A DNA stretch of 64,000 bases from an uncultured Verrucomicrobiae bacterium (lineage in GTDB: Bacteria > Verrucomicrobiota > Verrucomicrobiia > Chthoniobacterales > UBA10450): the NCBI GenBank assembly GCA_963791565.1, contig CAWBSX010000004.1, positions 372,601 through 436,600 on the forward strand, given 5' to 3'. Each line of letters starts with the position of its first letter. The stretch's first letter is position 1. Position numbers and translations under genes: made by a program. The notes under the pieces were generated by a model. That model was not told the DNA's origin, ran no database searches, and worked only from the letters and a program-made list of their open reading frames with translations. This document shows, piece after piece, positions 4,669 through 62,970 of the stretch.

Positions 4669-4679
4669 TCGACCACTCG

Positions 4680-5672
4680 TTAGGCGAACTCGCGAAAAAT
4701 CTCCGCGCCAATTTCGAACGAGCGCAGCCGCGCCGCGTGATCGAAAATTTGTCCGGTGGCAATTATTTCGTCGGCGCCGGTTTCGTCCAGAATGGATTTT
4801 ACCCGCGTGCGAATGGTCGCGGGCGATCCGATGAGCGCATAACGCATTCGCTCGTCCACGGCCGCGCGCTCCAGCATATTCCACTCAACTTCCATGTCGT
4901 CGACGGGCGGCGGCAATTCGCCGGGCTGGCCGCGCACAAGATTCAAAAACATCAGCTGCGCGGAAGTGGCGATTCGCTGACCTTCTCGGTCGGTCTCCGC
5001 GCCAAAGAGTCCGGCGCCGATCATGACGTAAGGTTTCTGCAACTGCGCCGACGGTTTGAATTCGCTGCGATAAATCTTGAGAGCGACGTGCAGATATTCC
5101 GGCGCGAAATGTGAGGCGAAGGCGAAAGGCAGGCCGAGCTCCGCCGCGAGACGCGCGCTAAAATCGCTCGAGCCTAACAAGTAGAGCGGCACCTTTAAAC
5201 CCGCGCCCGGTACCGCACGCAACCTCTCGTTAGGCGCAGCCGGCTTGAAATAGGATTGCAGTTCGAGAAGGTCTTGCGGAAAAGTCTCGCCGCTGCTGCC
5301 GAGATAACGCCGCAAAGCGCGTGCAGTCAGCTGGTCGCTCCCCGGCGCGCGACCGAGGCCGAGATCGATCCGTCCGGGATAGAGCGATTCCAGCGTGCCG
5401 AACTGTTCCGCGATCACGAGCGGCGCGTGATTCGGCAGCATGATCCCGCCCGCGCCGACGCGAATCTTTTTCGTCGCGCCCGCGACATGACCGATAACGA
5501 TCGACGTCGCCGCGCTCGCGATTCCTGGAAGATTGTGATGCTCCGCTAGCCAGAAGCGATGATAACCCCACTCCTCCGCGTGCCGCGCCAGATCGGCCGT
5601 GTTGCGAAATGCCTGCGACGCGTCACCGCCTTCGACAATCGGTGACAGATCGAGAACGGAATAGAACTGCAT
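4680..5672 (-). CDS. LLM-class (luciferase-like) flavin-dependent oxidoreductase
   Basis: [22 protein letters not shown]...[77 protein letters not shown]. The start is reassigned to the internal ATG at 5672; the track's start at 5759 adds 29 aa that overlap the upstream gene. Confidence 0.8.
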
Positions 5673-10980: not shown

Positions 10981-13443
10981 GTGAACACGTTCCTGAAGGA
11001 TCTGCAGTATGCCGCGCGCATGCTGCTGAAAAATCCTGGTTTCAGCGCCATCGCGGTCATCGCTTTGGCGCTCGGGATCGGTGCCAACACCGCGATCTTC
11101 AGCGTGGTCAGCGCAGTTCTGCTGCGTCCGCTGCCTTATCCGCAGCCGGAACAAATCGCCGCCGTCTGGGCGGCGGACAATACCAAAGGACACGCGAAGA
11201 CTTCGTTTTCGTTTCCGGATTTTGCGGACGTGCGCGCGCAGAACCAGGTCTTCAGCGCGATGGCGGCGTACGACGATTCCGACATGACCGCGACCGACCG
11301 CGGCGCGGATGCCGAGCACATGCACGGCCTGCTGGTGACGTCGGATCTTTTTCGTGTCTTAAACGTGAATCCGATTCTCGGACGCGGCTTCACTGCCGAT
11401 GACGACAAACCCGGCGTGCGCGTCGTCGTTTTGAGCTACGACCTTTGGCAACGCCGGTTCGGCGGTGATCGCAACGTTCTCGAAAAAACGATCACGTTGA
11501 ACGAAACGCCGCATCAAATCATCGGCGTCATGCCGCCGACGTTCCGTTTTCCAATCGAAAAAACGTCCGCCGTTTTCTGGACTTCCGCCGCAACGCAATT
11601 TGAAGCCGCGCCCGGCAGCACCGAGACCTCAGCTTCGCAGCGCGGCATGCACTTCTTGCACTCCATCGCACGCCTCAAACCGGGTGTGAGCGCGGCACAG
11701 GCGGAAGCGAACACGAAGACCATCATGGCTTCGCTGGCCACGCAATATCCCGATTCGAACAAGCGCTTCGATTCCTCGCGCGTCGTCGCGCTTCTCTCCG
11801 ATCTAACTACCGATGTCCGTCCCGCGCTCGTCGTTCTCCTCGCCGCCGCCGGCTGCGTCTTGCTGATCGCATGCGTGAACGTGGCCAACCTTCTTCTCGC
11901 CCGCGCCACTTCGCGCGAAAAGGAAATGGGAATTCGCGCCGCGCTCGGCGCGAGTCGGGCGAGAATTTTCCGGCAGCTCCTCACCGAAAGCGCCTTGCTC
12001 TCGTTAGGCGGTGGCGCCGCCGGGATGTTGCTGGCCGTTTGGGGAACAGCCGGCCTCGCCGCGTTGCTTCCGCAAAATTTTCCGCGCGCAGAGGAGATCG
12101 GACCCGACCTGCGCGTGCTCGCGTTTACCGCACTCGTTAGTCTTTTTACCGGCCTCCTTTTCGGACTCGCCCCGGCCTGGCGCGTTTCGCGGCCTGATGT
12201 TGTCAGCGCGCTCAATGAAAGCGCGCGCGGCTCGAGCGAAACCGCGCGCGGTCGCCGCCTGCGCGGAATTCTTGTCACCGCCGAAATGGTGCTCGCGTTT
12301 GTCTTGCTCGTCGGCGCCGGGCTCTTGATCCGCAGCTTTTGGCAATTGCAGAAAGTGCCGATCGGCTTTGATCCAAACCACGTCATGACCGCGAGTGTTT
12401 CGCTGCCCGAGGGCGACGGCGGACCGGAAATCACCAAGCGCGACGAACAATTTTACGTGCAGCTGATGGAACGGGCCAACGCCATTCCCGGCGTCCGTTC
12501 GGTCGCGGCGATCAGCCCATTGCCCTTGAGCGGCGCGGATTGGCGAACCGGGTTCGACATCGCCGGCCGTCCCACCGCGAAGTCCGATCGAGCGCTGAGC
12601 GCGGCGCGCGTCGTTACGCCGGGTTATTTCGGCACGATGGGAATTCCGCTGCGCAAAGGCCGCGATTTCGATCCGCGCGATAAGTTCGAATCGGCCGGCG
12701 TTGTCATCGTGAACGAATCACTCGTTAGGCAATATTTTCCTAACGAAGATCCAATCGGGAAAAGAATCACACCGCAAATTTCACTGGATGTGCGCGAACC
12801 GATCGAGCGCGAGATCATCGGCGTGGTCGGCGATGTGAAGGCGCGCAAGCTAACCGCGGAAAATATGGCCGAGTTGTATCTGCCGCACACGCAGGCGCCG
12901 AGCGGCAGCATGACGATTGTCGCGCGCACCCATATGGAACCGCAGGCGATCCTGCCTTCGCTGCGCGGCGCGGTTGAAAGTTTGAACAAAGATCTGCCGC
13001 TCTACGAAACGCGGACCATGCAGCAATATCTTGATCGCGCCGTCGCGCAGCCGCGCTTGAACATGACACTGCTCATCGTTTTCGCGGGTGTGGCCATCGT
13101 CCTCACCGCCGTCGGAATTTACGGCGTGATGGCTTACTCGGTCGCACAACGCACCCAGGAAATCGGCATTCGCATGGCGCTCGGCGCGCAACGTTTCGAT
13201 GTTCTGCGACTCATCGTCGGACAAGGCGCGCGCTTGGTTGCGCTCGCGATGGTCATCGGCGTCGGCGCTGCGTTCGCCATGACTCGATCAATCGCCAGTC
13301 TGCTCTACGGCGTCGGGGCGACAGATTTCCCCACACTTTTCTCGGTCGCGCTTCTTCTCGCACTCATCGCGCTCCTGGCTTGCTGGTTGCCGGCGCGCCG
13401 CGCGAGCGGGATTGATCCGATCACCGCGCTACGCACGGAATAA
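10981..13443 (+). CDS. ADOP-family duplicated FtsX permease (MacB-like periplasmic core domain x2), copy 1
   Basis: 820 aa. N-terminus [43 protein letters not shown], and a C-terminus of the same kind ending ...[17 protein letters not shown] start. Confidence 0.85.
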
Positions 13444-13502
13444 TTCGTATGCGAGAAGAAGCGCGGCGCGACACTCTGGGTAGCGCAAGCGTCTCGCGCG
13501 CC

Positions 13503-13535
13503 GGTTTCGGTGTCTCGCCGAAACGAACTTTTTTT
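13503..13535 (+). terminator. intrinsic terminator between ADOP copy 1 and copy 2
   Basis: Stem GTTTCGG (13504-13510) / CCGAAAC (13518-13524) with a 7-nt loop, followed by a T7 run at 13529-13535. Confidence 0.55.
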
Positions 13536-13575
13536 CGAGCAAAGTCCACATCGCCTAAGGAGAGGAGAAACTTCG

Positions 13576-15987
13576 ATGAATAATTTTCGCTACGCACTTC
13601 GCCAGTTGCGTAAGTCGCCCGGGTTCACTTTTGTCGCTGTACTAACGCTTGCGCTCGGCATCGGCGCGAACACCGCGATCTTCACTGTCGTTCACGCAGT
13701 TTTGCTTTCACCGCTGCCGTTCCCCGACGCCGATCGCATCGTCGCGGTGCAATCGCGCAACCTGCAGGAGAATCTCAAAGGGCTGGGCTTCGCGCCCGCC
13801 GGATTCCGCGATGTCGAGAAACAGGTCACCTCTTTCGAGGCCATCGCGGCTTATCGCTATAACTACGACAATCTCACGCGCGTGGAGAAACCAACTTCGG
13901 TCAGCGGAAGTCTTGTCACGCAAGATTACTTTCGCGTGCTCGGCGAGAAGGCGCTGATCGGGCGCACTTTCACGCCCGAAGACGCCGCGGCCAACGCAAA
14001 ACCGACCGTTCTTCTGAGCTATGATTTCTGGCAGAAACAATTCGGCGGCCGGCGCGATCTCGTCGGCCAAACGGTCACGCTCGATGACGTTCCGCACGAG
14101 GTCATCGGCGTCATGCCGCGCACTTTCAAAGATCCATTTGGCATCGCCGCCGAGTGGCGACTCTTTCCGAACGAAGGCGGCGAGAACTTCGTCGCCAATG
14201 CGCGTTTCTGGGCCGTCATCGGACACATGAAAGCTGACGTACCAATGTCCACTGTTCAGGCCGAGCTCGGTACAATCAGCGCGCGACTCGCGCAGAGCGA
14301 TGCGAAATTCTACAAAGGCTGGGACATCAATCTGAGTCCGTTGCGCGATCAGGTCGTCGGAAATTATCGCGAAGGTTTACTGCTGGTGGTGGGCGCCGCG
14401 CTGGTCGTGTTGCTTATCACCTGCGCCAATGTCGCGGGTCTGCAATTTGTTCGCGCCTCGACACGACAACGCGAAGTCGCGATTCGACTCGCTCTTGGCG
14501 CGAGTCGCGGGGCGGTCGCGCGCGGACATCTGATCGAATCGCTGTTGCTCGTCGCGGTCGGTGGACTCGGGGGTGTGTTGCTCGCGAGTTGGGGATTGGA
14601 TGTGCTTCTCGCGAGCCTGGCGCGCGATTGGATTCCGCGCAGCGATGAAATCGCGCTCAACACGACGGTGCTTTTGGTCACCGGCGTGACCGCATTAGTA
14701 ACCGGAATTCTCTTCGGACTTTTCCCCGCATGGCACGCCACGCGCATCGACGCGATCGATTCGTTGCGCGACGGCGGCAAAGGGGGCTCGGCCGGTCTGC
14801 AATCGGTGCGACTGCGCGGCGCGCTCGTCATCGCACAAATCGCGCTCACGCTCGTGCTGCTGGTTTGCGCGGGACTGGTCTGGAAGAGTTTCGCCGCGAT
14901 CACGCGCGTGAATCCCGGGATTCAAATCGAGAACACGCTCAGCATGGTCATCACGCTCGCGCCCACGCAATACGACACGGGTCCCAAACGCATCGACTAT
15001 TTTCGTCAGCTTCTCGAACGCACAAGTGTGATTCCGGGAGTGGAATCAGTCGCGTTCACTCAGACGATGCCGTTCACGTGGGGAATCCCGGCGACGTTTT
15101 CTGTTTACGGCTCTTCGAACGACGAAAACAAATTGCCACCGGCCATCTACGATTCCGTTAGTCCATCGTATTTTTCGACGATGCACATTCCGCTGCTGGC
15201 TGGCCGGGTATTTGCGGAAACCGACAACGCGCAATCGCCCGGTGTGATCATGATCAGCCAATCAACGGCGAAGAAATTTTTCCCGAATGAAGATCCGATT
15301 GGAAAGCGTCTGATTCTTCCGCCGGGCCGTCAGCAACCGAATCCCGTGCCGCTCGAAATCATCGGCGTGGTCGGCGATGTGCCGCGCGATGGACTCAACG
15401 CCGACACGCCATACCAGGTCTACGCGAGTTTGAATCAGCGTGCGTGGGCCTTCGCCACATTGCTTGTGCGCTCGCCGCTTCCAGTCGAAACACTCACGCA
15501 GACAGTTCAGCGCGCGATCTGGGCCTTCAATCCGGAGCAGACAATTTCCAACGTCGCGCCGGTGCGCACGCTGGTGAAACAAAGCCTGACGCAGCCGCAA
15601 CTTTATCTCACGCTCTTCAGTCTCTTCGCGCTCCTCGCATTGCTGCTCGCCAGCATCGGTCTTTACGGGCTCATCGCTTACAGCGTCGCGCAGCGCACGC
15701 GCGAATTCGGCATTCGCTTCGCACTCGGCGCGCAGATTGGCGATGTGCTGCGACTCGTTCTCGGACAAGGCGCGCGGCTGACCGCGCTTGGCCTTGTCCT
15801 TGGTTTGCTGGGCGCGGCGGGAGTCGCGCGTCTCATGCAAACACTTCTCTTTCATACCGCCGCTTACGACCCGCTGGTCTTCGGCGGTGTTGTGTTAGTA
15901 CTCGCGGTCATCGGCCTTCTCGCCGCGTTGTTGCCAGCGTTGCGCGCGACCAAGGCCGACCCAGTCGCCGCTCTCCGCACCGAATAG
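13576..15987 (+). CDS. ADOP-family duplicated FtsX permease, copy 2
   Basis: The start is set at [39 protein letters not shown], which aligns with the N-termini of the paralogues. An AAGGAG sits 10 nt upstream. The track start at 13510 lies inside the terminator hairpin. Confidence 0.85.
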
Positions 15988-15997
15988 GAACGCCAAC

Positions 15998-18430
15998 ATG
16001 AACACACTGCTTCAAGATTTTCGTTACGCACTGCGCAAGCTCGTGCAGCAGCCCGCCTACACCATCATCGCCGTGCTCACGCTCGCGCTCGGCATCGGCG
16101 CGAACACTGCGATCTTCAGTGTGGTCAACGCGGTGCTTTTACGCCCGCTGCCTTATCCGGAACCTGATCGCATCGTTTATCTCAGCGAAGTAAACGGCGG
16201 GACGAACAGCGCGATCGCATTTCCGGATTACATCGATTGGCGCAACGATGCGAAATCGTTCGAGCATCTCGCACTCTCGCGCACGGAATCGCGAAACCTC
16301 AGCGGCATTGCCGGTCGTGAACCGGAGCGCGTCTCGGTCTCGTTCGTCACTGCGAACTTCTTTCGCGTGATCGGCCTCAATCCACAAATCGGCCGCACCT
16401 TTACGGACGACGAAGACAAGCCGGGCGCGCCGGCGCTGGTCGTGCTGAGCGATCGTTTGTGGGACCGCGTCTTCAATCGCGACCCAAACATCATCGGTCG
16501 CGCGGTGACGTTTCACGGTCAGCCGTTCACGGTCACGGGCGTGATGCCGCGGGAAATGGATTCGCCGCATGGCGTGGACGCGTGGTTCTCGGTGATGCGA
16601 CGGAGCGCAAACGCCGCCTGGCAGAATCGCGCCAATCATCCAATGCTCTTCGCCTGGGGCCGGCTGAAGAAAGGTATCACGGTCGAGCAGGCGCGAAGCG
16701 AGATAAAAACCATCGCGGCGCGATTGGAAAAAACTTACCCGGAAACGAACGCGGGCACGAGCGGCGAAGTAAAACCGCTGCTCGATAACTTGTTAGGCAA
16801 CTACCGCACAAGTCTCACGCTGTTGCTTTGCGCGGTCGCGCTCGTCCTCCTCATCGCTTGCGCGAATCTCGCCAATCTTTTCGCCGCGCGCGGTGCTTCG
16901 CGTTCGCGTGAGTTTGCCATTCGCGCCGCTATTGGTGCATCGCGCTTAGGAGTCGTTAGGCAATTGCTCATTGAAAGTTTTTGTATCGCGCTGATCGGCG
17001 GCGCGCTCGGTTTGCTCTTTGCCATTTGGGGACGCGACGCTCTTGTCGCCTTCGCGCCGGGTAATGCGCCGCGCTTCGAAGGCATCGGCTTCGATGCGCG
17101 CGTGCTCGGTTTCACTTTTCTGCTGGCCAGCCTGACGACAATTCTTTTCGGCCTCTGGCCCGCATGGCAGGTCGCGCACGCCGACATTCAAACCGCACTT
17201 CAAGCCGGTTCATTCGGTAGTTCCGAAACAAAAACAGCGCGGCGTAGTCGCGATTGGCTGGTCATCGCCGAAGTCGCGCTCACACTTTTGTTGCTCAGCG
17301 CCGCCGGTCTTGTTTTGAAGAGCTTCGCCAAGATGCAATCGGTCGCGCTCGGTTTCGAGCCGCGCGGACTTCTCACCGCGCGCATCGATTTGCCCTACAC
17401 GAAATACACCGATCACGAAAAGGTCGCGAACTTCGACAACGCATTGCTCGACGGCGTGCGGCGCTTGCCCGGCGTGCAAAACGCAGCCGTTGGCGCGAAT
17501 CCTCCGATGCTGAGCGGATGGCAGCTGAATTTTTTACCCGAAGGCGCGCCGCCGACTGATCCGAGCCAGCAGCCATCCGCCGATTCGGAAGTGATCGCGG
17601 GTGATTACTTCGCTGCGCTGCAAACAACATTGATCCGCGGCCGCACCTTCAACGCCGGCGACACCAAAGATTCGCCGCCGGTCGTGATCATCGATCAAAC
17701 GTTGGCCGAGACAGCTTTCCCGAAACAGGATCCGTTAGGCAAACGTCTCGCCATCGGTGGTGCCGACGGGAACAGCGAGGACATCATTCTCTATGAAATC
17801 GTCGGCGTGGTCGCGCACATGAAACTGCGCGGATACGACGACGTGCCAGCGATACCGGCATTCTTTTTTGCCGAAACGCAAACGGCGCGAACGAATCAGG
17901 TATTACTCGTTAGGGCGAGCGGCAATGTGAAGTCGCTCGAGAGATCGATTCGCGAAGTCATCAATCGCGTCGATCCAACACAGCCGGTTTTCGACTTCCG
18001 CGCCATGGAAGAACGCGTGGCCGAAACCTGGTCGACGCAACGTCTGCTTTCATTTCTTCTCGCGATTTTTGCGGGTCTCGCGTTGCTCCTCGCCGCAGTC
18101 GGCTTGTATGGCGTGCTTTCTTACACTGCATTGCGACGCTTACGCGAAATGGCGGTGCGCATCGCATTCGGCGCGCGACCTGCGGACATCCGCGGTTTGG
18201 TTTTCGGTCACGGCTTCCGTTTGTTCGGCGTAGGAATCGCGCTCGGCGCAATCGGCGTTGCTGGCTCTGCGCCCGTCATCCGCAGTTTTCTTTTCGGGGT
18301 CGCAACCGCTGATCTGCAGATTTTTGCCGCTGTCGGTATTCTGCTCTCGTTAGTCACCGTGCTCGCCGCGTGGTTACCCGCGCAACGCGCCTGCCGCGTG
18401 AATCCGATCATTGCGCTGCGCGCAGAATAA
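15998..18430 (+). CDS. ADOP-family duplicated FtsX permease, copy 3
   Basis: 810 aa, [43 protein letters not shown]. It is 10 nt downstream of copy 2. Confidence 0.85.
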
Positions 18431-18433
18431 TTC

Positions 18434-18444
18434 GCCTAACGAGT
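18434..18444. repeat. copy of GCCTAACGAGT in the 18-nt spacer between ADOP copies 3 and 4
   Basis: Exact match. The same extended form GCCTAACGAGTCCT also occurs at 10965-10978, upstream of ADOP copy 1. Confidence 0.9.
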
Positions 18445-18448
18445 CCTA

Positions 18449-20863
18449 ATGGAAACAACCCTTCGCGACATTCGCTATGGCTTGCGCACCCTGCGCAAAA
18501 ATCTCGGCTTCACCGCGGTGGCGGTGGTCGCCCTCATGCTCGGAATCGCGAGCACGACCGTCATCTTCAGCGTGATCAATGGCGTCCTGCTCCGCCCGCT
18601 GCCTTATCCGGACGCGGATCGGATCGTCACCATCTCGCAGACCATCGCCGCTTCGAATATTGCGCGCGGAGCGACAGCGCCGGCGAATTACGTCGATCTG
18701 GCGGCGCAGTCCGATGCCTTCGTCGCCATGGCTGCGTCGCGTGGCTGGCAGGGAAATCTCACCGAGGGCGACATGCCCGAACGTCTGCGCGTGACCATGA
18801 CGACGACGAACTTGTTTCAAGTTTTTGCGAGCGCGCCGATCCTCGGTCGCGGTTTGCAAGCGGCGGATGAACAGCCCGGTCGTTCGAATGTCGCCGTGCT
18901 TAGTCAGGGTTTGTGGGAACGGAAATTCGGGAGCGATCGCAACATCATCGGTCGCGAAATTCGTTTCGATGGCGAACCGCGCACCATCGTTGGCGTGATG
19001 CCGGCCAGTTTTTCACCGGATGATTACGGCGAACTTTGGGTGCCATCGCCTTTCGGTGTGCCAACGCATGCCTTGCGGCCGACGCAAGACCCGCGCCGAA
19101 TGCGCGACAGCAATTATCTCGATGTTTATGCGCGTCTGAAACCGGGCGTGACTTTGCAGCAGGCGCAAACGCAGTTGAGCGCGGTCATGGCGCGTTTGGA
19201 AAAAGATTACCCCGACGACAACATGGGCGAAGGCGTCGCCGTTACGCCGTTGCAGGAAGACAAAGCGGGCAGCATGCGGCCAGCGCTGCTCATGCTGGGC
19301 GCGGCGGTTGGATTTCTTCTTCTGATCGGTTGCGCGAACGTGGCGAACCTGCAGCTGGCGCGCGCGGCAGCGCGGTCACGCGAAGTTTCCATTCGCGCCG
19401 CGCTGGGCGCGGATCGCTCACGACTCGTTAGGCAACTTCTGACCGAAAGTATTTTGCTCGCGCTGATTGGCGGCGCGCTGGGAATTCTGGTCGCGGCCTG
19501 GGCCGTGCCGGTTTTGATGGCGATGGCGCCGCCCGCCTTGACAAGCTTCAAGGAAATTACACTCGATCGCGGCGTGCTCTTGTTCAGCCTGATCATTTCA
19601 TTACTAACTGGCGTGCTCTTCGGGCTGGCACCGGCTTTTCAAGCCTCATCGGCGAATCCGAACGACTCGTTAGGCGAAGGCGAACGCGGCAGCACGGCCA
19701 GTCACAGCCGCAGCCGGTCCGTTCTGATCGCGACGGAAGTTGGACTAACACTGGTCCTGCTCATCGGCGCGGGATTGCTCATCAGAAGTTTCGGGAAGGT
19801 CACCAAAGTCGATCCCGGTTTCACGCCGGAGAACTTACTTGTCTTTGACGTCGGCCTTCCGCCCGCGACGGACGACGCGCACAATCTCGCCTTTTATCAG
19901 CAGGTGGTGGAACGCGTGCAGGCTGTTCCCGGTGTGATGCGCGTCGGCGCGGTCAGCCGGTTGCCGTTCTCCGGCGGTAACAGCGGCCGCTCCTTCAATC
20001 TTCCCGGCAGCGACAAAAACTACGACGCCGACATTCGCGTGAGCACGCCGGATTATTTTCGCACGATGAACATTCCGCTTTTGCGCGGACGCGTCTTTAC
20101 TGAACAGGACACGAAAGATTCTGTGCGCGTTTGTGTGATCAACGACGCCACCGCGCGGATGGCGTTTCCCGGCGAAGATCCGGTCGGCAAATTCGTCGTC
20201 AATTTCGGACCGGACAGCGAGAAGCTGCAGATCATCGGCGTGGTCGGAAACATCCGGCATCTCGCGCTCGACACCGCGCCGCATCCGGAACTCTATCAAC
20301 CACTCGGCCAGGCAAAATGGCCGCGCATGTTCATCGCAATGCGAAGCGCCGTGGGAAATTCGCTCGCGTTATTACCGGCCGCGCAGAACGCGGTCTGGAG
20401 CGTCGATCGCAACGTCGCGCTCGGTAATGTACGCACGATGGAAGACACGATCGCGCGGACGTTGTTGAAGCGAAAATTCACCATGACGCTGCTGACAATT
20501 TTCGCCGGCATCGCCGTCGCGCTCGCCTCGATCGGTTTGTATGGTGTGATGTCGTATTCCGTTTCGCAACGCACGCGTGAGATCGGAATTCGCATGGCGC
20601 TCGGTGCGCAACGTGCGGATGTGCTGCGACTGGTCGTTAGGCAAGGGATGTTACTAACCGCGATTGGCGTCGGGCTTGGGCTGGCCGGTTCGCTTGGCCT
20701 AACGAGACTTATCTCGAGTTTGCTCTTTGGTATCAGCGCGACGGATGTCAGTACCTTCGGCGCGGTTTCGATTTTGCTGCTCGCGATCGCGTTACTGGCC
20801 TGCTGGCTGCCGGCGCGGCGCGCGAGTGGCGTCGATCCGATGGTGGCGCTACGAGCGGAGTAA
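18449..20863 (+). CDS. ADOP-family duplicated FtsX permease, copy 4
   Basis: 804 aa, METTLRDIRYGLRTLRKNLGFTAVAVVALMLGIASTTVIFSVI. The 18-nt spacer from copy 3 contains a copy of the 11-mer word. Confidence 0.85.
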   Translation: METTLRDIRYGLRTLRKNLGFTAVAVVALMLGIASTTVIFSVINGVLLRPLPYPDADRIVTISQTIAASNIARGATAPANYVDLAAQSDAFVAMAASRGWQGNLTEGDMPERLRVTMTTTNLFQVFASAPILGRGLQAADEQPGRSNVAVLSQGLWERKFGSDRNIIGREIRFDGEPRTIVGVMPASFSPDDYGELWVPSPFGVPTHALRPTQDPRRMRDSNYLDVYARLKPGVTLQQAQTQLSAVMARLEKDYPDDNMGEGVAVTPLQEDKAGSMRPALLMLGAAVGFLLLIGCANVANLQLARAAARSREVSIRAALGADRSRLVRQLLTESILLALIGGALGILVAAWAVPVLMAMAPPALTSFKEITLDRGVLLFSLIISLLTGVLFGLAPAFQASSANPNDSLGEGERGSTASHSRSRSVLIATEVGLTLVLLIGAGLLIRSFGKVTKVDPGFTPENLLVFDVGLPPATDDAHNLAFYQQVVERVQAVPGVMRVGAVSRLPFSGGNSGRSFNLPGSDKNYDADIRVSTPDYFRTMNIPLLRGRVFTEQDTKDSVRVCVINDATARMAFPGEDPVGKFVVNFGPDSEKLQIIGVVGNIRHLALDTAPHPELYQPLGQAKWPRMFIAMRSAVGNSLALLPAAQNAVWSVDRNVALGNVRTMEDTIARTLLKRKFTMTLLTIFAGIAVALASIGLYGVMSYSVSQRTREIGIRMALGAQRADVLRLVVRQGMLLTAIGVGLGLAGSLGLTRLISSLLFGISATDVSTFGAVSILLLAIALLACWLPARRASGVDPMVALRAE

Positions 20864-25539: not shown

Positions 25540-28500
25540 ATGCCGCGGAACAACGAGCTGCGAAAAATTCTCCTCATCGGCTCCGGCCCGATCGTGATCG
25601 GGCAGGGCTGCGAGTTCGATTATTCCGGCGTGCAGGCCTGCAAGGCTTTGCAGGAAGAGGGCTACGAGGTCGTGCTGGTGAACTCGAACCCGGCTACCAT
25701 CATGACCGATCCGGAATTCGCGGACCGCACTTACATCGAGCCGATCACGCCGGAAGTGATCGAAGCGATTCTCGAGCGCGAAAAGCCGGACGCGATTCTG
25801 CCAACAATGGGCGGCCAAACCGCGCTCAACGCCGCGATGGAATTGAATCGCAACGGCGCGCTCGCTAGGCACGGCGTGAAATTGATCGGCGCGAACGCGC
25901 AGGCCATCGCGAAAGGCGAAGATCGCCAGCTTTTCAAGGAAGCGATGTTGCGCATCGGTCTCGACGTTCCGCGCTCCGGCATCGCGCACAATCGCTCGCC
26001 GATGCGAACCGCGTCGCGGACACGATCGGAACTTTTCCGCTCATCATTCGACCCGCTTTCACGCTCGGCGGCACCGGCGGCGGCATCGCCTACAATCGCG
26101 AAGAGCTCGAGGAAATCGCCGAGCGCGGGCTCGCGCTTTCGCCGGTCACGCGAAGTCTTGATCGAGGAGTCGCTCGTCGGCTGGAAGGAATTCGAGATGG
26201 AAGTGATGCGCGACCACGCCGACAACTGCGTAGTCGTTTGCTCGATCGAAAACTTCGATCCGATGGGCGTGCACACCGGCGACTCGATCACTGTCGCGCC
26301 GGCGCAAACGCTGACCGATCGCGAATATCAATTGATGCGCGACGCGTCGTTCGCCGTGATTCGCGAGATCGGCGTGGAGACCGGCGGATCGAACATTCAG
26401 TTCGCCGTCAATCCGGACAACGGCCGCATGGTGGTGATCGAAATGAATCCGCGCGTCTCGCGTTCGAGCGCGCTCGCTTCGAAAGCCACCGGATTTCCCA
26501 TCGCGAAAATCGCCGCCAAACTCGCGGTCGGCTACACGCTCGACGAAATCAAGAACGACATCACGCGCGAAACGCCGGCGAGCTTCGAGCCAACGATCGA
26601 CTACTGCGTGGTCAAAGTTCCGCGCTTCACTTTCGAAAAATTTCCGCACGCCGACCCGACTCTAACGACGCAGATGAAGAGCGTCGGCGAAGCGATGGCG
26701 ATCGGCCGCACTTTCAAGGAGGCGCTGCAAAAAGCGCTGCGTTCACTCGAGATCAAGCGCTTCGGTCTGTGCGGCGACGGCGAAGGAAAAGCGCGTCGAT
26801 CCCGAAACATTGCGTCTCAAGCTCGCCATTCCGAATGCCGAGCGCATTTTCCATCTCGCGCAGGCGTTCCAGGACGGCATGCGATCGACGACGTCTTCGA
26901 GCTGACGAAAATCGACCGCTGGTTCCTGCACAATGTCGAGCAGATCGTGTAGGGCAGAACTGCACAGCTGGCAATCGATCGACTTGCGCCGAGCGAAGAA
27001 GCTCGGATTTTCCGATCGGCAACTGGCGATCGCGCACGGAACTTGAAAGAACAGACGATTCGCGCAACGGCGGAAAGCAGCAGAAAGTCATCCCCACTTA
27101 CCGACTGGTCGATACCTGCGCGGCGGAGTTCGAAGCGTTCACGCCGTATTACTATTCCACCTACGGGATCGAGAACGAGATGCGCCGCGACGCGAACGGC
27201 GCAAGATCATGATTCTCGGCGGCGGGCCGAATCGCATCGGGCAGGGAATTGAATTCGATTACTGCTGCGTGCACGCGGCTTTCGCGCTGCGCGAACTCGG
27301 ATTCGAAACCATCATGGTGAACTCGAATCCGGAAACGGTTTCGACCGATTACGACACGAGCGACAAACTCTATTTCGAGCCGCTCACGCTCGAAGACGTG
27401 CTCAATATTTACGATCAGGAAAAGCCGGAAGGTGTGATCGTGCAGTTCGGCGGACAAACGCCGCTGAATCTCGCGGCCGGTTTGCGCGCGGCCGGCGTTC
27501 CGATTCTCGGGACGCAACCGGAGAGCATCGAGATGGCGGAAGACCGCAAGCTTTTCGCCGCGATGCTGGACAAGCTCGGTTTGCGGCAAACGCCGAGCGG
27601 ATCGGCGGTGAGCGCCGACGGAAGCGATAGCGATCGCGGAACGAATCGGTTATCCAGTGCTCGTTAGGCCGTCGTTCGTCCTGGGCGGTCGCGCGATGGA
27701 ACTGGTTTACAACGACGACAGATCTCGAGCGTTACATGCAGAGCGCGATCGAGGTCAGCTCGGATCGGCCGGTCTTGGTCGATCGGTTTCTCGAAGACGC
27801 GATCGAGGTCGACGTCGATTGCATCGCTGATGGTGAGACTAGCCGTGATCGGCGCGATCATGGAGCACGTCGCAGCTCGCCGGCATTCATAGCGGGGACA
27901 GCGCCTGCGCCATCCCGACTTTTTCGCTCTCGACAAAACGTGCTCGACGGAAATCTCGCGCGCGACGAAGGCGATGGCGCGCGAGCTCGAACGTGCGCGG
28001 GCTGATGAATGTGCAATTCGCGGTGAAAGGCGACGACGTCTACGTGCTCGAAGTGAATCCGCGCGCCTCGCGCACCGCGCCGTTTGTCAGCAAAGCGATC
28101 GGCGTTCCGTTCGCAAAACTCGCCGCCAAAGTGATGACGGGAAAGACGTTGAGCGAACTCGGCTTCACCAAAGAAATTATTCCGAAACATTTTTCGGTGA
28201 AGGAACCGGTCTTTCCTTTCCTGCGTTATCAAGGAAGCGACACTGCGCCTGGGCCCGGAAATGAAATCTACCGGCGAAGTGATGGGCATCGATGCCGATC
28301 TCGGTCTTGCTTACGCCAAGGCGCAGATGGCCGCGCCGCCGCCCTGCCGAAGATCAGGAAATGTTTTCATCAGCGTGAAAGATTCGGACAAGGAAAGCGT
28401 CGTGCCATTGGCGCGTGATTACATCGCGCTCGGTTTCGGGATTATCGCGACCAGCGGAACGGCGGCGATGTTGGCCGCGGTCGGAATTCCAGTGCACCAG

Positions 28501-28750
28501 CGTTTTCAAATTACGCGAAGGCCGGCCGAACGTGCTCGATCGGATCAAGAACGGCGACATGCAGTTGATCATCAATACGCCGAGCGGAAAAATTCCACGC
28601 GAAGATGAAATCAAAATGCGCAGCGGCGCGCGCACATTGAAAATTCCGATCATCACGACGATGCGCGCGGCGCAGGCCAGCGTACACGGCATTGCTTCAC
28701 TGCAGAAAAGCAGTCTGCAGGTTAAGACGTTGCAGGAATATCACCTGTAA
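25540..28750 (+). pseudogene. carB: carbamoyl-phosphate synthase large subunit (carB) disrupted by at least 12 single-nucleotide frameshifts
   Basis: All CarB segments are present and colinear in three alternating frames. These include [30 protein letters not shown]..., [54 protein letters not shown]..., [24 protein letters not shown]..., [20 protein letters not shown]..., [47 protein letters not shown]..., EMKSTGEVMGIDADLGLAYAKAQ... and ...LIINTPSGKIPREDEIKMRSGARTLKIPIITTM. The frame switches near 25990, 26152, 26795, 26885, 26955-27210 (about 4), 27625, 27717, 27850-28010 (about 3), 28240, 28345 and 28495. No large deletions. Confidence 0.85.
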
Positions 28751-29598: not shown

Positions 29599-30483
29599 AT
29601 GTCGGAGGCGAGCACCAACGTCGCATTGGTGCAGATGCAATGCGGGACGGATCCCGCGGCGAATCTGGAAAAGGCGATCGGGTTCATCCGCGATGCGGCG
29701 AAGAGCGGCGCGCAGATAATCTGTCTGCCGGAGCTTTTTCGATCGCAGTATTTTTGCCAATCGGAAGATCACAAATACTTCGCGCTCGCGGAAGAAATTC
29801 CCGGGCCGACCACGGACTCGTTAGGCAAACTCGCGGGCGAGCTTAAGGTTGTCATCGTCGCGTCGCTTTTCGAAAAGCGCGCTGCCGGCGTTTATCACAA
29901 CACCGCCGCCATCATCGATGCCGATGGGAAATTTCTCGGAAAATATCGCAAGATGCACATCCCGGATGATCCATCGTTTTACGAAAAATTTTATTTCGCG
30001 CCGGGCGACTTGGGCTTCAAAAACTGGCCCACACAACGTGGGAATATTGGTGTCTGTGTTTGCTGGGACCAATGGTATCCGGAGGCAGCCCGCCTGACGG
30101 CATTGCGCGGTGCGCAGTTACTTTTTTATCCGACTGCGATCGGATGGCATCCTTCTGAGAAGGAAAAGTATGGTCGCGCGCAATATTCCGCTTGGGAAAC
30201 AATGCAACGCAGTCACGCCATTTCGAATGGTTGTTTCGTCGCAGCCGTGAATCGCGTCGGTTTCGAAAATCCCGCGGGCGGCGACGGCATCGAATTCTGG
30301 GGACAAAGTTTCATGGTCGCGCCGAGCGGCGAAATTCTCGCGAAAGGCAGCGTTGATCGCGAAGAAATCATCCTGGCCGACGTGGATTGGAAACGCGTCG
30401 ATGAACACCGCACGCATTGGCCATTCCTGCGCGATCGTCGCATCGACGCCTACGCAGGCCTCGAGCGGCGGATGATCGACTGA
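29599..30483 (+). CDS. aguB: carbon-nitrogen hydrolase, N-carbamoylputrescine amidase-like
   Basis: Nitrilase-superfamily signature (catalytic E/K/C context, CVCWDQWYPE). About 294 aa, typical for AguB. The symbol is tentative. Confidence 0.7.
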   Translation: MSEASTNVALVQMQCGTDPAANLEKAIGFIRDAAKSGAQIICLPELFRSQYFCQSEDHKYFALAEEIPGPTTDSLGKLAGELKVVIVASLFEKRAAGVYHNTAAIIDADGKFLGKYRKMHIPDDPSFYEKFYFAPGDLGFKNWPTQRGNIGVCVCWDQWYPEAARLTALRGAQLLFYPTAIGWHPSEKEKYGRAQYSAWETMQRSHAISNGCFVAAVNRVGFENPAGGDGIEFWGQSFMVAPSGEILAKGSVDREEIILADVDWKRVDEHRTHWPFLRDRRIDAYAGLERRMID

Positions 30484-31058: not shown

Positions 31059-31348
31059 GCGCCACTCAGACACCCCTGAACGCCGCTGTTCCGTAACTGT
31101 CTAATATCGCAGTTCTTTGTTAGTGCTGAGCGGATCCGCCTGGGGCGGATTCGACGGGGGACCCAAATTTCGCGCAAGCGATCGGGGCGCATGACGCTGC
31201 GGCGTCAGGAGCACTTGGTGGCTCTAGCCCGACAGCTAACTCCGTAAGCGAAACACCGAGAGCAGGGAGCGATTCCTGAGTCTCAAAAAAAGTTCGCCTT
31301 CCGCAAATAGTGCGAGCGCAAGCCGCAAGGCTTTAGAAGGAGATAGTC

Positions 31349-34413: not shown

Positions 34414-34465
34414 CCGTCCCGTTTAACTGCTCGTTAGGCGCGAAGAAAGCTCTTTTGTTGGCGTG

Positions 34466-34506
34466 GCGAATAAAGAAAAAGCGGCGGTCAATTCGACCGC
34501 CGCTTT
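34466..34506 (-). terminator. rho-independent terminator of rplQ (bidirectional hairpin)
   Basis: Perfect 13-bp stem AAAAGCGGCGGTC / GACCGCCGCTTTT (34476-34488 and 34494-34506) with loop AATTC. On the minus strand it is followed by TTTTTCTTTATT. Confidence 0.7.
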
Positions 34507-34537
34507 TCTGAACATTCTGCCTAACGAATGGTTACAA

Positions 34538-35019: not shown

Positions 35020-35030
35020 GCCTAACGAGT
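35020..35030. repeat. copy of GCCTAACGAGT filling the rpoA-rplQ intergenic spacer
   Basis: Exact match between the rpoA stop (35032-35034) and the rplQ start (35011). Confidence 0.9.
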
Positions 35031-39242: not shown

Positions 39243-39871
39243 CTCTCGTCAGGCGGAACCAGCTCCGGCGTCTCAACAACTGGCGCCGGCTCTGGTTTGG
39301 GCGCGGTCGGTAGATAACGCTTTCGCAGTTCGTCCGCGTTCGGCAATTCGTCGAGATTACGCAGGCCAAAATGCTCCAGGAAAAACTGAGTCGTTTCGTA
39401 GAGTAACGGACGCCCCGGCACTTCGGCGCGACCAGCGATTCTGACAAGGCCGCGCTCCATCAGATTTTGTAGCACGCCATCGACTGCTACGCCGCGTACG
39501 GCTTCAACATCGGCGCGCGTAATCGGCTGGCGATAAGCAATAATCGCCAGCGTCTCCAACGACGGCGGCGTGAGACGCTGCGGTTTCGGCGCGGGAAAAA
39601 GCTGGCGAACCCATTGCGCGTAAGCCGGCTCACTTGCCAGCTGCCAGCCTTCCGCTTTTTCCACTAATTGAAATGCATGTTGCTGCTCGATGTATTCGAC
39701 TTTCAACTGCTCGAGCGCGGCGGAAATGTTGGCCTCGGTCACTTTCGCGAACTCGTTAGGCAAAAGTTCGTCCGCATCGCCCGCGCCTTTAATTGCATCT
39801 TTCAACTCGCGCGTGGTCAGCGGTTTTTGCGCGCTGAAAAGCAAAGCCTCGACTACTTGAACGAGTGTCAT
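39239..39871 (-). CDS. scpB: segregation and condensation protein B
   Basis: MTLVQVVEALLFSAQKPLTTRELKDAI...LETLAIIAYRQPITRADVEAVRGVAVDGVLQNLMERGLVRIAGRAEVPGRPLLYETT. The start is reassigned to the internal ATG. Confidence 0.8.
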   Translation of the reverse strand: MTLVQVVEALLFSAQKPLTTRELKDAIKGAGDADELLPNEFAKVTEANISAALEQLKVEYIEQQHAFQLVEKAEGWQLASEPAYAQWVRQLFPAPKPQRLTPPSLETLAIIAYRQPITRADVEAVRGVAVDGVLQNLMERGLVRIAGRAEVPGRPLLYETTQFFLEHFGLRNLDELPNADELRKRYLPTAPKPEPAPVVETPELVPPDES

Positions 39872-49684: not shown

Positions 49685-49755
49685 AGGTTCGCGGCACGCT
49701 CTGGCGGAAGCGGTCGCGATGCAACTTAGGCGCGGCAGGAATTCTGCTTACTCAC

Positions 49756-60163: not shown

Positions 60164-62970
60164 CTTCGATCGAAAAGAAATTGCGGACCGCAGATTGCGA
60201 TGTCGCCTTCGACAATCTTACGCGCCAACTCTTCGCCAGCGATGCCTCCTTATATCAAATCGAACCGCTCGGCGTCGCATATCCGCGCAGTCCGCAGCAG
60301 GCGCGCTCGATCATAACTACCGCGGCCGAGGCCGGCATCTCCGTCATTCCGCGCGGCGCCGGCAGCGGACTTTCTGGCGGCGCGATTGGCGATGGATTGA
60401 TCGTCGATTTCTCGCGCTTCAATCGCGAGATCAGTGCGTTTGATTTGGAGAAACGAACGGTGCGCATCGGTGCCGGCGTCGTGCTCGATCAACTCAACGC
60501 CTTCTTGAAGCCACACGGCTTTTGTTTTGGTCCGGACGTAGCGACGAGTTCGCGCGCCACGCTCGGCGGCATGATCGCGAACAATTCTTCCGGCGCGCGT
60601 GTGCCGGTTTACGGCACGACGGCTGATCATGTCGTCGCGCTCGAAGTGGTCCTGGCTGATGGCCGGATTGAAAACATTTCGACGAACAACCACTCGTTAG
60701 GCGCGGAACACCAATTCATCGCGCAGCTCGTGCAGCGTCACGCCGCTGACATCGCGGAATGGATGCCGCCGGGAATGTTGAAACGCTGGAGCGGCTATGG
60801 GCTCGCGCGTTTTCTTAATGAGCCGAACGACTTAACGGAGATCTTTTCGGCGAGTGAAGGAACGCTCGGCGCGATTTGTTCTGCCGAACTCAACATCGTG
60901 CCACTGCCGCGGGAAAAAGGTTTGGGCCTGGTGTTTTTCGCGTCGGTCGCCGAGGCGATGCAAGCGACGGTCGAATTGCTGGACCTCAAGCCATCGGCCA
61001 TCGAGCACATCGACAAGCCACTCTTCGATCAGACGAAGGGTCAGCTTCTTTTCCAGGCCGCGCGCGATTTGATGGAGCTCGATACGAAACCGTGCGAAGC
61101 GATCTTGATCGTCGAATTCTACGAAGATGTCGCCGCGTGCCTAACGACACTCGCATCGAAACAGCTCGGGCTTCGCACCTTGATCTGCAAAAACGCGGCG
61201 GAGATGAATCTCATCTGGGCGATGCGCAAAGCCGGATTGTCGCTCCTGACCGGCCGGGTCGGTCCCGCGAAGCCGGTGGCTTTCATCGAAGATGCCGCCA
61301 TTCCACCGCACAAGCTGCCGGAATACGTCGCGGGCTTGAGATCGCTCATGGATCCGCTCGGTCTCGAGGTTTGTTATTACGGCCACGCCGCCACCGGACT
61401 ATTACACGTGCGGCCGGTGCTCGATCTGCGGCGAGCAGATGACCTGCGGAAGTATCGGCAAATCGCCGACGGAGTTTCAGCACTCGTTAGGCAATTCAAA
61501 GGCTCGCTCGCCGGTGAGCACGGCGTGGGCATCGCGCGGACTGAATACATGCGCGCACAAGTGGGCGACGAATTGTTCGGTGTCATGCGCGAGATCAAGC
61601 GCCTCTTCGATCCGAAGAATCTTTTTAATCCGGGGAAATTGATCGGCGACGGCGAATTCAAAGTCGATTCGCATTTGCGCAGCACCTACACCTCGCATCC
61701 GACGCTGCCGTTTGAACCACGCCTCGCGTTCGCGTTTAAAGATGGTTCGTTCATCGGCAATCTCGAGCAGTGCAATGGCTGCGGCGGGTGTCGCAAAGAT
61801 GCGCCGACGATGTGTCCAACTTTCCTCGCTACCGGTGAGGAATACATGTCGACGCGCGGTCGCGCCAATGCCATCCGCGCCGCGCTGGAATTGCGCACGG
61901 ACAATCATGATCCCCTGCGCGCGCATGAGTTGGAAAAAGCGCTGAGCAACTGTCTTTCGTGCAAAGCTTGCACGACGGAGTGTCCGTCGAACGTCAATCT
62001 GGCATTGCTCAAGGCCGAGCTGCTTTATGCGCGCCACCGACGCGATGGTTTGCCGCTGCGCGAACGAATGCTGAGTGCGGTGGACTTGTTAAGCAAGCTC
62101 GGTTGTCTCGCTCCGCGTCTGGCCAACGCCACGCTGGAAAATCGATTCGTGCGCGGGTTGATGCAGAACTCGTTAGGCATTTCGGCGAAACGACCCTTGC
62201 CGCATTATGCGCGGGAGCGTTTCGATAAATGGTTCGTGAAACATTCGCCGACGAAAACGACGCGAGGGCGTGTGATTCTTTGGGATGACACCTTCGTCCG
62301 CTATCATGAACCGAACATCGGCATCGCCGCCGTAACGGTTCTGGAGTCGTTAGGCTTCGAAGTTGCGCTGGCGAAGAATCGGAAATGCTGCGGACGTCCG
62401 GCGTTCAGTCAGGGAAACATCGATGAAGCCAAACGGCTCGGTCAGCATAATCTCGCGCTGCTGAAGGGATCCGACGCACCGATTCTGTTTCTGGAACCTT
62501 CGTGTTACTCAATGTTCGCGGAAGATTATCGCGAGATGAATTTGACCGACGCGGTGGCCGTTGCGCCACGCGCATTTCTCTTCGAACGATTCGTCGAAGA
62601 CATTCTCGAACGCGAACCGAATGCGTTGCACCTCAAGCAAACCGCGGGACACGTCGCAATCCATGCGCATTGTCACGCCAAAGCGCTGATGAAGCCCGAC
62701 TTTATGAAGCAGCTCGCGCAACGTTTGCCCGGCAGAAAGGTGGAGCTACTCGACACCGGCTGCTGCGGAATGGCGGGCGCATTTGGCGCGCTGGAATCAA
62801 AATACGAATTATCGCTACAAGTGGCGGAACCACTCGTTAGGCAAGTTGAGGCGCAACCGAACGAGACGACAATCGTCGCCTCTGGCACGAGTTGCCGTCA
62901 TCAAATCGAACATCTCACGACCGCCAAGCCGCAGCACATGGCAGAGTTACTGGCCGATGCCTTAGTCTGA
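60160..62970 (+). CDS. FAD-linked oxidase fused to 4Fe-4S and CCG (heterodisulfide-reductase-like) domains, YdiJ/GlcD-GlcF-fusion type
   Basis: Start set at MTSIEKKL (ATGA overlap with the upstream gene). FAD-binding PCMH domain (PRGAGSGLSGGA), then C-x2-C-x2-C-x3-CP clusters (CNGCGGCRKDAPTMCP, CLSCKACTTECP), and two CCG-like regions (CCGRP, GCCGMAG). Confidence 0.8.
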   Translation: MTSIEKKLRTADCDVAFDNLTRQLFASDASLYQIEPLGVAYPRSPQQARSIITTAAEAGISVIPRGAGSGLSGGAIGDGLIVDFSRFNREISAFDLEKRTVRIGAGVVLDQLNAFLKPHGFCFGPDVATSSRATLGGMIANNSSGARVPVYGTTADHVVALEVVLADGRIENISTNNHSLGAEHQFIAQLVQRHAADIAEWMPPGMLKRWSGYGLARFLNEPNDLTEIFSASEGTLGAICSAELNIVPLPREKGLGLVFFASVAEAMQATVELLDLKPSAIEHIDKPLFDQTKGQLLFQAARDLMELDTKPCEAILIVEFYEDVAACLTTLASKQLGLRTLICKNAAEMNLIWAMRKAGLSLLTGRVGPAKPVAFIEDAAIPPHKLPEYVAGLRSLMDPLGLEVCYYGHAATGLLHVRPVLDLRRADDLRKYRQIADGVSALVRQFKGSLAGEHGVGIARTEYMRAQVGDELFGVMREIKRLFDPKNLFNPGKLIGDGEFKVDSHLRSTYTSHPTLPFEPRLAFAFKDGSFIGNLEQCNGCGGCRKDAPTMCPTFLATGEEYMSTRGRANAIRAALELRTDNHDPLRAHELEKALSNCLSCKACTTECPSNVNLALLKAELLYARHRRDGLPLRERMLSAVDLLSKLGCLAPRLANATLENRFVRGLMQNSLGISAKRPLPHYARERFDKWFVKHSPTKTTRGRVILWDDTFVRYHEPNIGIAAVTVLESLGFEVALAKNRKCCGRPAFSQGNIDEAKRLGQHNLALLKGSDAPILFLEPSCYSMFAEDYREMNLTDAVAVAPRAFLFERFVEDILEREPNALHLKQTAGHVAIHAHCHAKALMKPDFMKQLAQRLPGRKVELLDTGCCGMAGAFGALESKYELSLQVAEPLVRQVEAQPNETTIVASGTSCRHQIEHLTTAKPQHMAELLADALV

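Follow-up and report, generated by a model that had tools for sequence, protein, structure and literature searches.

To our knowledge, sequences that enhance DNA uptake have been described only for the Neisseriaceae and the Pasteurellaceae, proteobacterial families of animal-associated bacteria. In the Neisseriaceae, the DNA uptake sequence (DUS; AT-GCCGTCTGAA and its dialects) is recognised by the minor pilin ComP. Elements of this kind are 9–10 nt long, occur hundreds to thousands of times, avoid the reading frames that contain stop codons and form dialects, and the canonical DUS uses its four frames evenly (bioRxiv 10.1101/2025.10.24.684340). The uptake signal sequence (USS; AAGTGCGGT / ACAAGCGGT) of the Pasteurellaceae reshapes proteomes, as stated in an excerpt of PMC2817400. 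A third abundant word, the highly iterated palindrome HIP1 (GCGATCGC) of cyanobacteria, is described as evolutionarily conserved in a passage of bioRxiv 10.64898/2026.06.24.733823. Here we analyse 64,000 nt of DNA from an uncultured Verrucomicrobiae bacterium (assembly GCA_963791565.1, contig CAWBSX010000004.1, positions 372,601 to 436,600; this whole stretch is called the window hereafter), in which a short word with the core TCGTTAGGC recurs in genes and spacers alike. An original prediction, made from the letters of this DNA, held that the nucleotide word, and not the protein, is the target of selection or deliberate recoding and that it fits an uptake-sequence-like element. We find that a directional pressure almost certainly acts on the DNA word itself, independent of strand, frame and gene, and that it overrides codon preference and causes amino acid replacements.

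Results and Discussion

The word was counted as the core 8-mer CGTTAGGC and as the 11-mer ACTCGTTAGGC, and its extended consensus in the window is A-N-N-ACTCGTTAGGC-R-A, i.e. A-N-N-A-C-T-CGTTAGGC-R-A. The 8-mer is present in 66 copies in 64 kb, which is about one per kb (Table 1); 1.36 copies are expected from dinucleotide-preserving shuffles. The 11-mer gives 37 perfect copies (expected about 0) and another 39 variants with one mismatch (expected 0.6), the mismatches being almost all at the outer positions. The word is non-palindromic, and its flanks show a preference only for A at −6 and −3 and for R-A on the 3′ side, with no AT-rich flanks evident. Among the 39 variants with one mismatch, six read ACTTGTTAGGC, in which the C of the word's CpG has become T; this is possibly a sign that methylated cytosines are deaminated inside the motif. 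Rfam and tRNA scans of the window gave no RNA gene accounting for the word; the sole match was a c-di-AMP riboswitch (RF00379, 31114–31265 on the + strand, 53.7 bits, E = 1e-9) upstream of an open reading frame (ORF) with an SPFH/Band_7 domain (31337–32653).

In the window, CGN makes up 95.7% of the arginine codons and AGG 2.7% (36 codons), so that the bias that the original prediction had claimed for arginine is indeed present; the bias claimed for leucine is less extreme, with TTG at 20.6%, TTA at 5.3% (102 codons) and CTA at 3.2%. Among the proline codons, CCT accounts for 7.1%. The exact 8-mer contains 12 of the 36 AGG, 11 of the 102 TTA, 12 of the 62 CTA and 15 of the 74 CCT codons. When up to two mismatches from the 11-mer are allowed, these numbers rise to 15 of 36 for AGG (42%) and 24 of 102 for TTA, with TTA, CTA and CCT each at about 24%. 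The objection that AGG and TTA could be common outside the word applies to TTA, most of which indeed lies outside, but the distance of the rare codons to the 11-mer is bimodal (within two mismatches, or five and more) and the word accounts for 24–42% of them. The forcing of rare codons is hence strong for AGG and goes in the same direction, more modestly, for TTA.

A sharper test is provided by the encoding of particular tripeptides. The codons TCG TTA GGC are used in 10 of 17 SLG tripeptides (59%, expected 0.16), CCT AAC GAG in 14 of 21 PNE (67%, expected 0.29), CTC GTT AGG in 9 of 25 LVR (36%, expected 0.04) and CTA ACG AGT in 8 of 12 LTS (67%, expected 0.02). Codon usage alone predicts that 0.2–1.4% are word-encoded, and the tests give P values of 1e-16 to 1e-21. 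The tripeptides that match the word are themselves in excess, for PNE with 21 occurrences versus about 2 expected from the amino acid frequencies. Because this excess corresponds to about the number of word-encoded copies, the word also alters proteins.

For the placement of the copies we used gene models that are crude calls from long ORFs and codon statistics, many of them checked with NCBIfam and Pfam; a few frame assignments may be wrong, as the window contains frameshifted genes. These are housekeeping genes split into overlapping ORFs in different frames (carB 25540–28750, rpoA 35195–36072, tryptophan 2,3-dioxygenase 54747–55813 and an S9 peptidase 47602–49747), most likely by indel errors of the long-read metagenome assembly, so that we do not regard them as real pseudogenes. 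The word points in both directions, with 35 copies on the + and 31 on the − strand, and shows no relation to the strand of the genes: by our tally, the coding strand holds about 28 copies and the other strand about 30. Chi and the FtsK-orienting KOPS sequences resemble the word as over-represented 8-mers that are tolerated in coding sequence, but they are far less frequent and heavily biased toward one replication strand. A polar motif of this type was rejected, because the orientation of 35:31 is incompatible with a 75:25 polarity (P = 9e-5). Even spacing or periodicity was rejected as well, since the spacing is Poisson-like with a coefficient of variation (CV) of 0.91, indistinguishable from random.

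Four frames of the word are free of stop codons and are used almost evenly, with 12, 11, 12 and 15 copies. These are xxC GTT AGG C (L-V-R) and TCG TTA GGC (S-L-G) in the forward orientation, and G CCT AAC GAG (P-N-E) and GC CTA ACG AGT (L-T-S) in the reverse orientation. The remaining two frames contain TAG or TAA and are occupied only where the word provides the stop codon of the gene. This is the case for six copies, while random placement predicts about 0.03. TAG is the commonest called stop (20 of 52); five of these lie inside the word, one of them being an artefact of the carB frameshift, and the TAA stop of two further genes is supplied by the word in reverse orientation. The TAG within carB (27665–27667) was rejected as a real stop, since it belongs to the artefactual frameshifted reading frame. 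Non-coding DNA, which makes up 10% of the window, is enriched in the word and touched by 17 of the 66 copies (P = 3e-4). Two of these places lie around rplQ. The terminator region 3′ of this gene, with its inverted word pair, folds with a minimum free energy of −47.5 kcal/mol (z = −5), and the relatives that carry the word in the otherwise indel-rich rpoA–rplQ spacer include the genomes L003, L007, L016, L019, L024, L028, L031, L032 and L038 of our sample.

We next turn to the origin of the copies, for which the duplicated permeases of the ADOP family (TIGR03434) are instructive. ADOP1–ADOP4 form a tandem array at 10981–20860 (+) with pairwise identities of 38–44%; together with a gene at 1–2205 (−), the window holds five ADOP/FtsX-type duplicated permease genes, and ADOP2 (13510–15984) has no word copy. 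All the in-frame copies named in the original prediction exist, each displaced by at most 5 nt (0–5 nt); the ADOP3 copy, for example, spans 16952–16963 and not 16957–16968. Its claim that the word occupies the same site in three ADOP paralogues has to be reduced to ADOP3 and ADOP4, as the ADOP1 copy at residue 581 is a different site, at which the other paralogues read TAKK, LAET and TARM. It was right that ADOP1 uses CGG for the arginine of the shared site: in this column ADOP1 reads ATT TTC CGG CAG and ADOP2 reads GTC GCG CGC GGA, with CGC.

A metagenome scan with ADOP3 gave seven loci with orthologues of 75–84% identity, which sufficed for the ADOP3 sites, not for those of ADOP1 and ADOP4. 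A further locus (L092) contains four or more tandem ADOP genes that are not one-to-one orthologues of those in the window (≤49% identity) and was not used. At the 16952 site, the orthologues L081, L083, L085 and L087 have GTC/GTT ATT/ATC CGC CAG (V I R Q) and L082 has GTC GTT AGA CAA. Since the orthologues read V I R Q, the word in the window is derived (V replaced I, CGC changed into AGG and CAG into CAA), and the idea that the word codons are ancestral does not hold at this site. At the ADOP4 site at 20633 the other three paralogues have glycine (GGA/GGT), so that the AGG of the word amounts to a G to R replacement; this copy is about four residues off the internal-repeat equivalent of the 19424 site. 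Word-poor relatives hardly ever share the ADOP copies (1 of 16). Aligning the paralogues at the codon level had been proposed as a way to distinguish convergence from gene conversion. Because the paralogues are only about 40% identical (38–44%) and their flanking codons differ, the column shared by ADOP3 and ADOP4 is best read as independent convergence on a pre-adapted peptide and not as gene conversion: both proteins would already have possessed a V/I-R-Q peptide, each codon of which needed one or two substitutions to yield the word.

The YdiJ-like FAD/Fe-S oxidoreductase provides the same picture. Its word sites at 62170, 62347 and 62833 differ from the outgroups by three to four substitutions each (Table 1), some of them synonymous shifts to rare codons and others conservative replacements (T/A to S, Q to R), and at site 48700 the window has S-L-G where outgroups have S-V/I-G. 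In word-poor relatives, the same sites of the orthologues have common codons or other residues, so that the word has arisen through several substitutions per site, synonymous ones as well as replacements. The copies are in frame, free of indels and align base for base with the orthologues (ADOP3, YdiJ-like), and a protein alignment of 120 YdiJ-like homologues agrees with the codon alignments. At position 60695 the genome L089 has a reversed copy of the word, shifted by a few bases (nt ~4940 of its locus; SLPNE versus SLGAE), which is an independent acquisition at the same permissive spot.

Once present, the word is kept. A comparison with close relatives finds the word 8-mer unchanged at 37 of 54 aligned sites (69%), whereas 22% of the other 8-mers in the same alignments are intact; two of the genomes, L089 and L090, are near-duplicates, so that this pooled count is not fully independent, and L088 alone gives P = 1e-6. 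Some copies are old: the YdiJ-like codons at 61483 are the same in all five orthologues examined, one word-poor genome among them. At the LPNEF site of scpB, which we compared in L001–L038 and L069, 26 of the 34 related genomes retain the rare CCT, word-poor ones included, and the preceding codon ends in G in nearly all of them although the residue varies (M, L, S, T, A, V).

For the distribution of the word we sampled relatives over about 20 kb each, among them 80 glmM-centred loci. The best GlmM matches (up to 89%) are metagenome-assembled genomes of the Verrucomicrobiota/Chthoniobacterales labelled Udaeobacter or Spartobacteria, and judging from these matches the source genome is ʻCandidatus Udaeobacter’-like and not acidobacterial, despite the name of the ADOP family. 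The nearest relatives by the YdiJ-like protein (L088–L091, 83–89% identical) carry the same extended word at 0.7–2.2 per kb. Some genomes of the Udaeobacter group (L016 and others) reach 0.6–1.5 per kb, others have 0.05–0.3 per kb, which is an estimated several-fold above chance, and the word is absent from Chthoniobacter and Terrimicrobiaceae in the glmM-centred loci. The strength of the pressure differs among sister lineages. The other genomes have only TCGTTAGGC in common, the AC extension being confined to the clade of the window. A second, unrelated word, AAGATCGACA(A), is found in 40 copies in the 21 kb of L034 (1–21368; about 2 per kb; 20 on each strand), with several inverted pairs 15–26 bp apart; L009 and L035 likewise contain it in large numbers. 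This pattern of sharing of the core, the AC extension and AAGATCGACA, seen over the sampled ~20 kb per genome, may reflect dialects of a word.

Taken together, the claim at the centre of the original prediction, that the pressure acts on the nucleotide word and not on the protein, is supported by the tripeptide codons, the derivation from orthologous sequences, the CCT of scpB, the even use of strands and frames and the enrichment in non-coding DNA. Near-matches are turned into the word by point substitutions where the protein tolerates them, and the word is then kept intact. The rare codons AGG, TTA, CTA and CCT, the word-derived stop codons and the conservative replacements (of I by V, of V/I by L, of T/A by S, of Q by R and of G by R) are by-products of this process.

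What causes the pressure? We infer a mechanism of the DUS/USS type, i.e. biased DNA uptake followed by homologous recombination, and assign it a probability of roughly 0.5. Competent cells would preferentially bind and import DNA fragments bearing the word, and homologous recombination would make the word alleles more common in the population, a molecular drive that selection on the coding sequence would hold in balance; the differences in density, flanks and word identity among relatives would then be dialects of a changing receptor specificity. The features we tested match an uptake sequence, namely abundance, both orientations, non-coding excess, avoidance of stop frames, origin in place and conservation, so that the uptake-sequence-like pattern that had been predicted held on every test we ran. 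Like DUS, the word is a non-palindromic 9–12-mer whose core is strict and whose outer positions are graded, occurs about once per kb on both strands, in genes and spacers and in four stop-free frames almost evenly, and is conserved in position among relatives. Lineage dialects and inverted pairs at terminators, of which the window has one, may be further common traits. The word differs from DUS in its unrelated sequence, in its phylum, the Verrucomicrobiota, in having far fewer terminator pairs and in the presence of two abundant words in L034. With USS it shares the accumulation by point mutation at permissive coding positions, the distortion of the proteome, the enrichment in non-coding DNA and the over-representation of singly mismatched copies, and an excess of word-encoded tripeptides is described for USS, too, in an excerpt of PMC2817400. 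In contrast to USS, the word lacks evident AT-rich flanking segments, its frame usage is more even, and its host is uncultured.

Several observations weigh against an uptake mechanism. Roughly half of the DUS and USS lie in terminators, whereas we saw a single inverted terminator pair in 64 kb and no pair less than 30 nt apart in the window. L034 contains AAGATCGACA and CGTTAGGC (18 copies) interspersed, and thus two abundant words in one genome. Genomes of low density nonetheless keep certain copies (scpB, YdiJ-like 61485), which fits a pure drive only if a weak drive persists there. Biased repair or a selected DNA-binding function would give the same codon-level signature. Finally, the NCBIfam and Pfam checks of the window genes revealed none of comEA, comEC, dprA, pilQ or minor pilins within the 64 kb. 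In the literature we found no report tying Udaeobacter or Verrucomicrobia to uptake sequences or competence, and the word itself appears there only as incidental sequence strings in unrelated papers. ComEC is encoded by five of five soil Verrucomicrobia populations (54–56% GC) of the Angelo meadow, and ComEC loci are associated with more recombination across the populations of that study (PMC7305173, Table S3 for the former), which may serve as a weak lead toward competence here.

The alternative that survives best, though we consider it unlikely, is an intracellular process like the one conceivable for HIP1, for example a methyltransferase-linked repair of the very-short-patch type toward a recognition sequence, without any sequence-specific uptake. 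It would produce the same codon signature, the same conservation at orthologous sites and the density of about one per kb. HIP1 and our word are both hyper-abundant words of octamer scale in coding DNA outside the Proteobacteria, the second word of the relatives contains GATC and TCGA, and the six C to T variants at the CpG would fit a methylated target. On the other hand, HIP1 is palindromic, a known methyltransferase target and quasi-periodic, whereas our word is asymmetric and randomly spaced. As a contiguous, non-palindromic 9–11-mer with a graded outer consensus, it is also unlike typical methyltransferase targets. Excerpts of the HIP1 literature report a 15- to 300-fold over-representation in cyanobacteria (PMC5861425) and a connection to methyltransferases (PMC4390886). 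HIP1 itself is reported, in a passage of bioRxiv 10.1101/2024.09.10.611283, to enhance natural transformation, so that this idea and that of uptake are not cleanly separable.

Slightly less probable still is that a chromosomal protein, for instance one that organises the nucleoid, binds or recognises the word, or that the word is a signal for recombination or repair that lacks polarity, with ordinary selection on each copy. The copies kept across about 30 species, even word-poor ones (scpB, YdiJ-like 61485 and the rpoA–rplQ spacer), and the threefold better conservation of word 8-mers over other 8-mers would be well explained in this way. The lack of strand polarity, which Chi and KOPS have, and the random spacing speak against it, and every one of the thousands of copies would have to be selected strongly enough to outweigh the protein changes. 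Moreover, the density varies 10- to 40-fold between sister lineages, some of which swap in another word, and this is hard to square with a conserved housekeeping site.

Gene conversion in the ADOP array, or the spread of a repeated element or of miniature mobile element remnants, is very improbable. The identical 11 nt that ADOP3 and ADOP4 share in a homologous column initially suggest such an event, but the identity of these distant paralogues stops at the edges of the word and ADOP3 orthologues lack it at that site. A spreading repeat is contradicted by the in-frame, indel-free copies that align base for base with orthologues, by a conservation that spans only about 11–16 nt and by the occurrence in about 40 unrelated genes, and for the genome-wide pattern both ideas are effectively refuted. 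Least probable of all, and refuted by our observations, is a mere by-product of protein-level selection for LVR, SLG, PNE and LTS, of codon-pair bias, of assembly artefacts or of synthetic watermarking: some sites do encode conserved peptides (ALVRQF in 95 of the 120 homologues, LPNEF in ScpB, GYPVLVRPS in CarB) and the window does contain frameshift errors, but a single DNA word stands behind four unrelated peptides in two orientations and behind spacer and stop-codon copies, its rare codons are used in most occurrences of these peptides, and its presence in independent short-read and long-read environmental assemblies from unrelated studies rules out an assembly artefact as well as a watermark and also excludes the deliberate recoding considered in the original prediction.

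Table 1. Copies of the word in the window and the sites discussed in the text (window coordinates).
Feature	Position	Strand	Remark
ADOP3 GTC GTT AGG CAA (V V R Q)	16952..16963	+	site of the original prediction, placed correctly
ADOP4 CTC GTT AGG CAA (L V R Q)	19424..19435	+	column homologous to the ADOP3 site
ADOP4 GTC GTT AGG CAA (V V R Q)	20633..20644	+	second FtsX half
ADOP1 CTC GTT AGG CAA (L V R Q)	12721..12732	+	residue 581, non-homologous site
ADOP3 CCG TTA GGC (P L G)	17732..17740	+	orthologues have CTC, CTA or ATC for the Leu residue; L083 also TTA
ADOP4 TCG TTA GGC (S L G)	19667..19675	+	
ADOP1 TCG TTA GGC (S L G)	12001..12009	+	not listed in the original prediction; paralogues VAV, ALI
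ADOP4 reverse copy GGC CTA ACG AGA (G L T R)	20697..20704	−	rare CTA
YdiJ-like CTC GTT AGG CAA (ALVRQF)	61483..61494	+	FAD/Fe-S oxidoreductase
YdiJ-like TCG TTA GGC (S L G)	62170..62178	+	outgroups ACG CTC GGC, ACT CTC GGT (T L G)
YdiJ-like TCG TTA GGC (S L G)	62347..62355	+	outgroups GCG CTC GGC, GCG CTG GGC (A L G)
YdiJ-like CTC GTT AGG CAA (L V R Q)	62833..62844	+	outgroups CTC GTG CAG AAA, CTT GTG CAA CAG (L V Q K/Q)
scpB G CCT AAC GAG (LPNEF)	39752..39762	−	conserved across the Udaeobacter group
carB CTC GTT AGG CCG (L V R P)	27660..27671	+	CarB motif GYPVLVRPS; gene frameshifted in the assembly
N-carbamoylputrescine amidase-like (aguB-like) TCG TTA GGC (S L G)	29818..29826	+	
Inverted word pair	34429..34529	34432 (+) / 34519 (−)	outer stem around the intrinsic terminator hairpin 3′ of rplQ
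Word copy in the rpoA–rplQ spacer	35020..35030	−	just upstream of rplQ; about ten relatives have the word there
Stop-codon copies (starts)	4678..4685 (+), 8017, 20970, 31053, 47582, 50533		internal TAG (forward) or TAA (reverse)
8-mer starts (35), part 1	2706, 2888, 3274, 4678, 5228, 5773, 7194, 8017, 8296, 8594, 12002, 12723, 16954, 17733, 19426, 19668, 20635, 27662	+	
8-mer starts (35), part 2	29819, 31053, 34432, 39754, 45774, 46255, 47042, 47582, 50912, 56139, 57767, 59043, 60695, 61485, 62171, 62348, 62835	+	
8-mer starts (31), part 1	643, 1383, 3994, 10482, 10965, 18434, 20697, 20970, 23363, 25146, 32955, 33403, 34519, 35020, 37390, 41691	−	
8-mer starts (31), part 2	48700, 50533, 52192, 52538, 53017, 53209, 54398, 56526, 56834, 57272, 57881, 58703, 59250, 61139, 62982	−	

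Conclusion

In summary, we describe a genome-wide word on which a pressure acts at the level of the DNA; the phylum is new for such a word, and the lineage is uncultured and ecologically dominant. ʻCandidatus Udaeobacter’ is among the most abundant and still uncultured bacterial lineages of soil. It is possible, and we say this tentatively from the comparison with the known systems, that the word represents the first uptake-sequence system outside the Proteobacteria, with at least two words, TCGTTAGGC and AAGATCGACA, as dialects between sub-lineages. If true, self-biased natural transformation would operate in bulk soil and be strong enough to rewrite codon usage and proteins genome-wide, gene flow in soil would become directly testable with the word as a ready tag, and the group would gain a handle for its genetic manipulation. 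The word would further serve as a sequence marker for binning and for spotting foreign DNA in these genomes, and it would add an independent case to the debate on whether drive or selection maintains such words. Even without uptake, a force at the DNA level alters amino acids about once per gene in these bacteria, and this is relevant to annotators and to models of codon usage.

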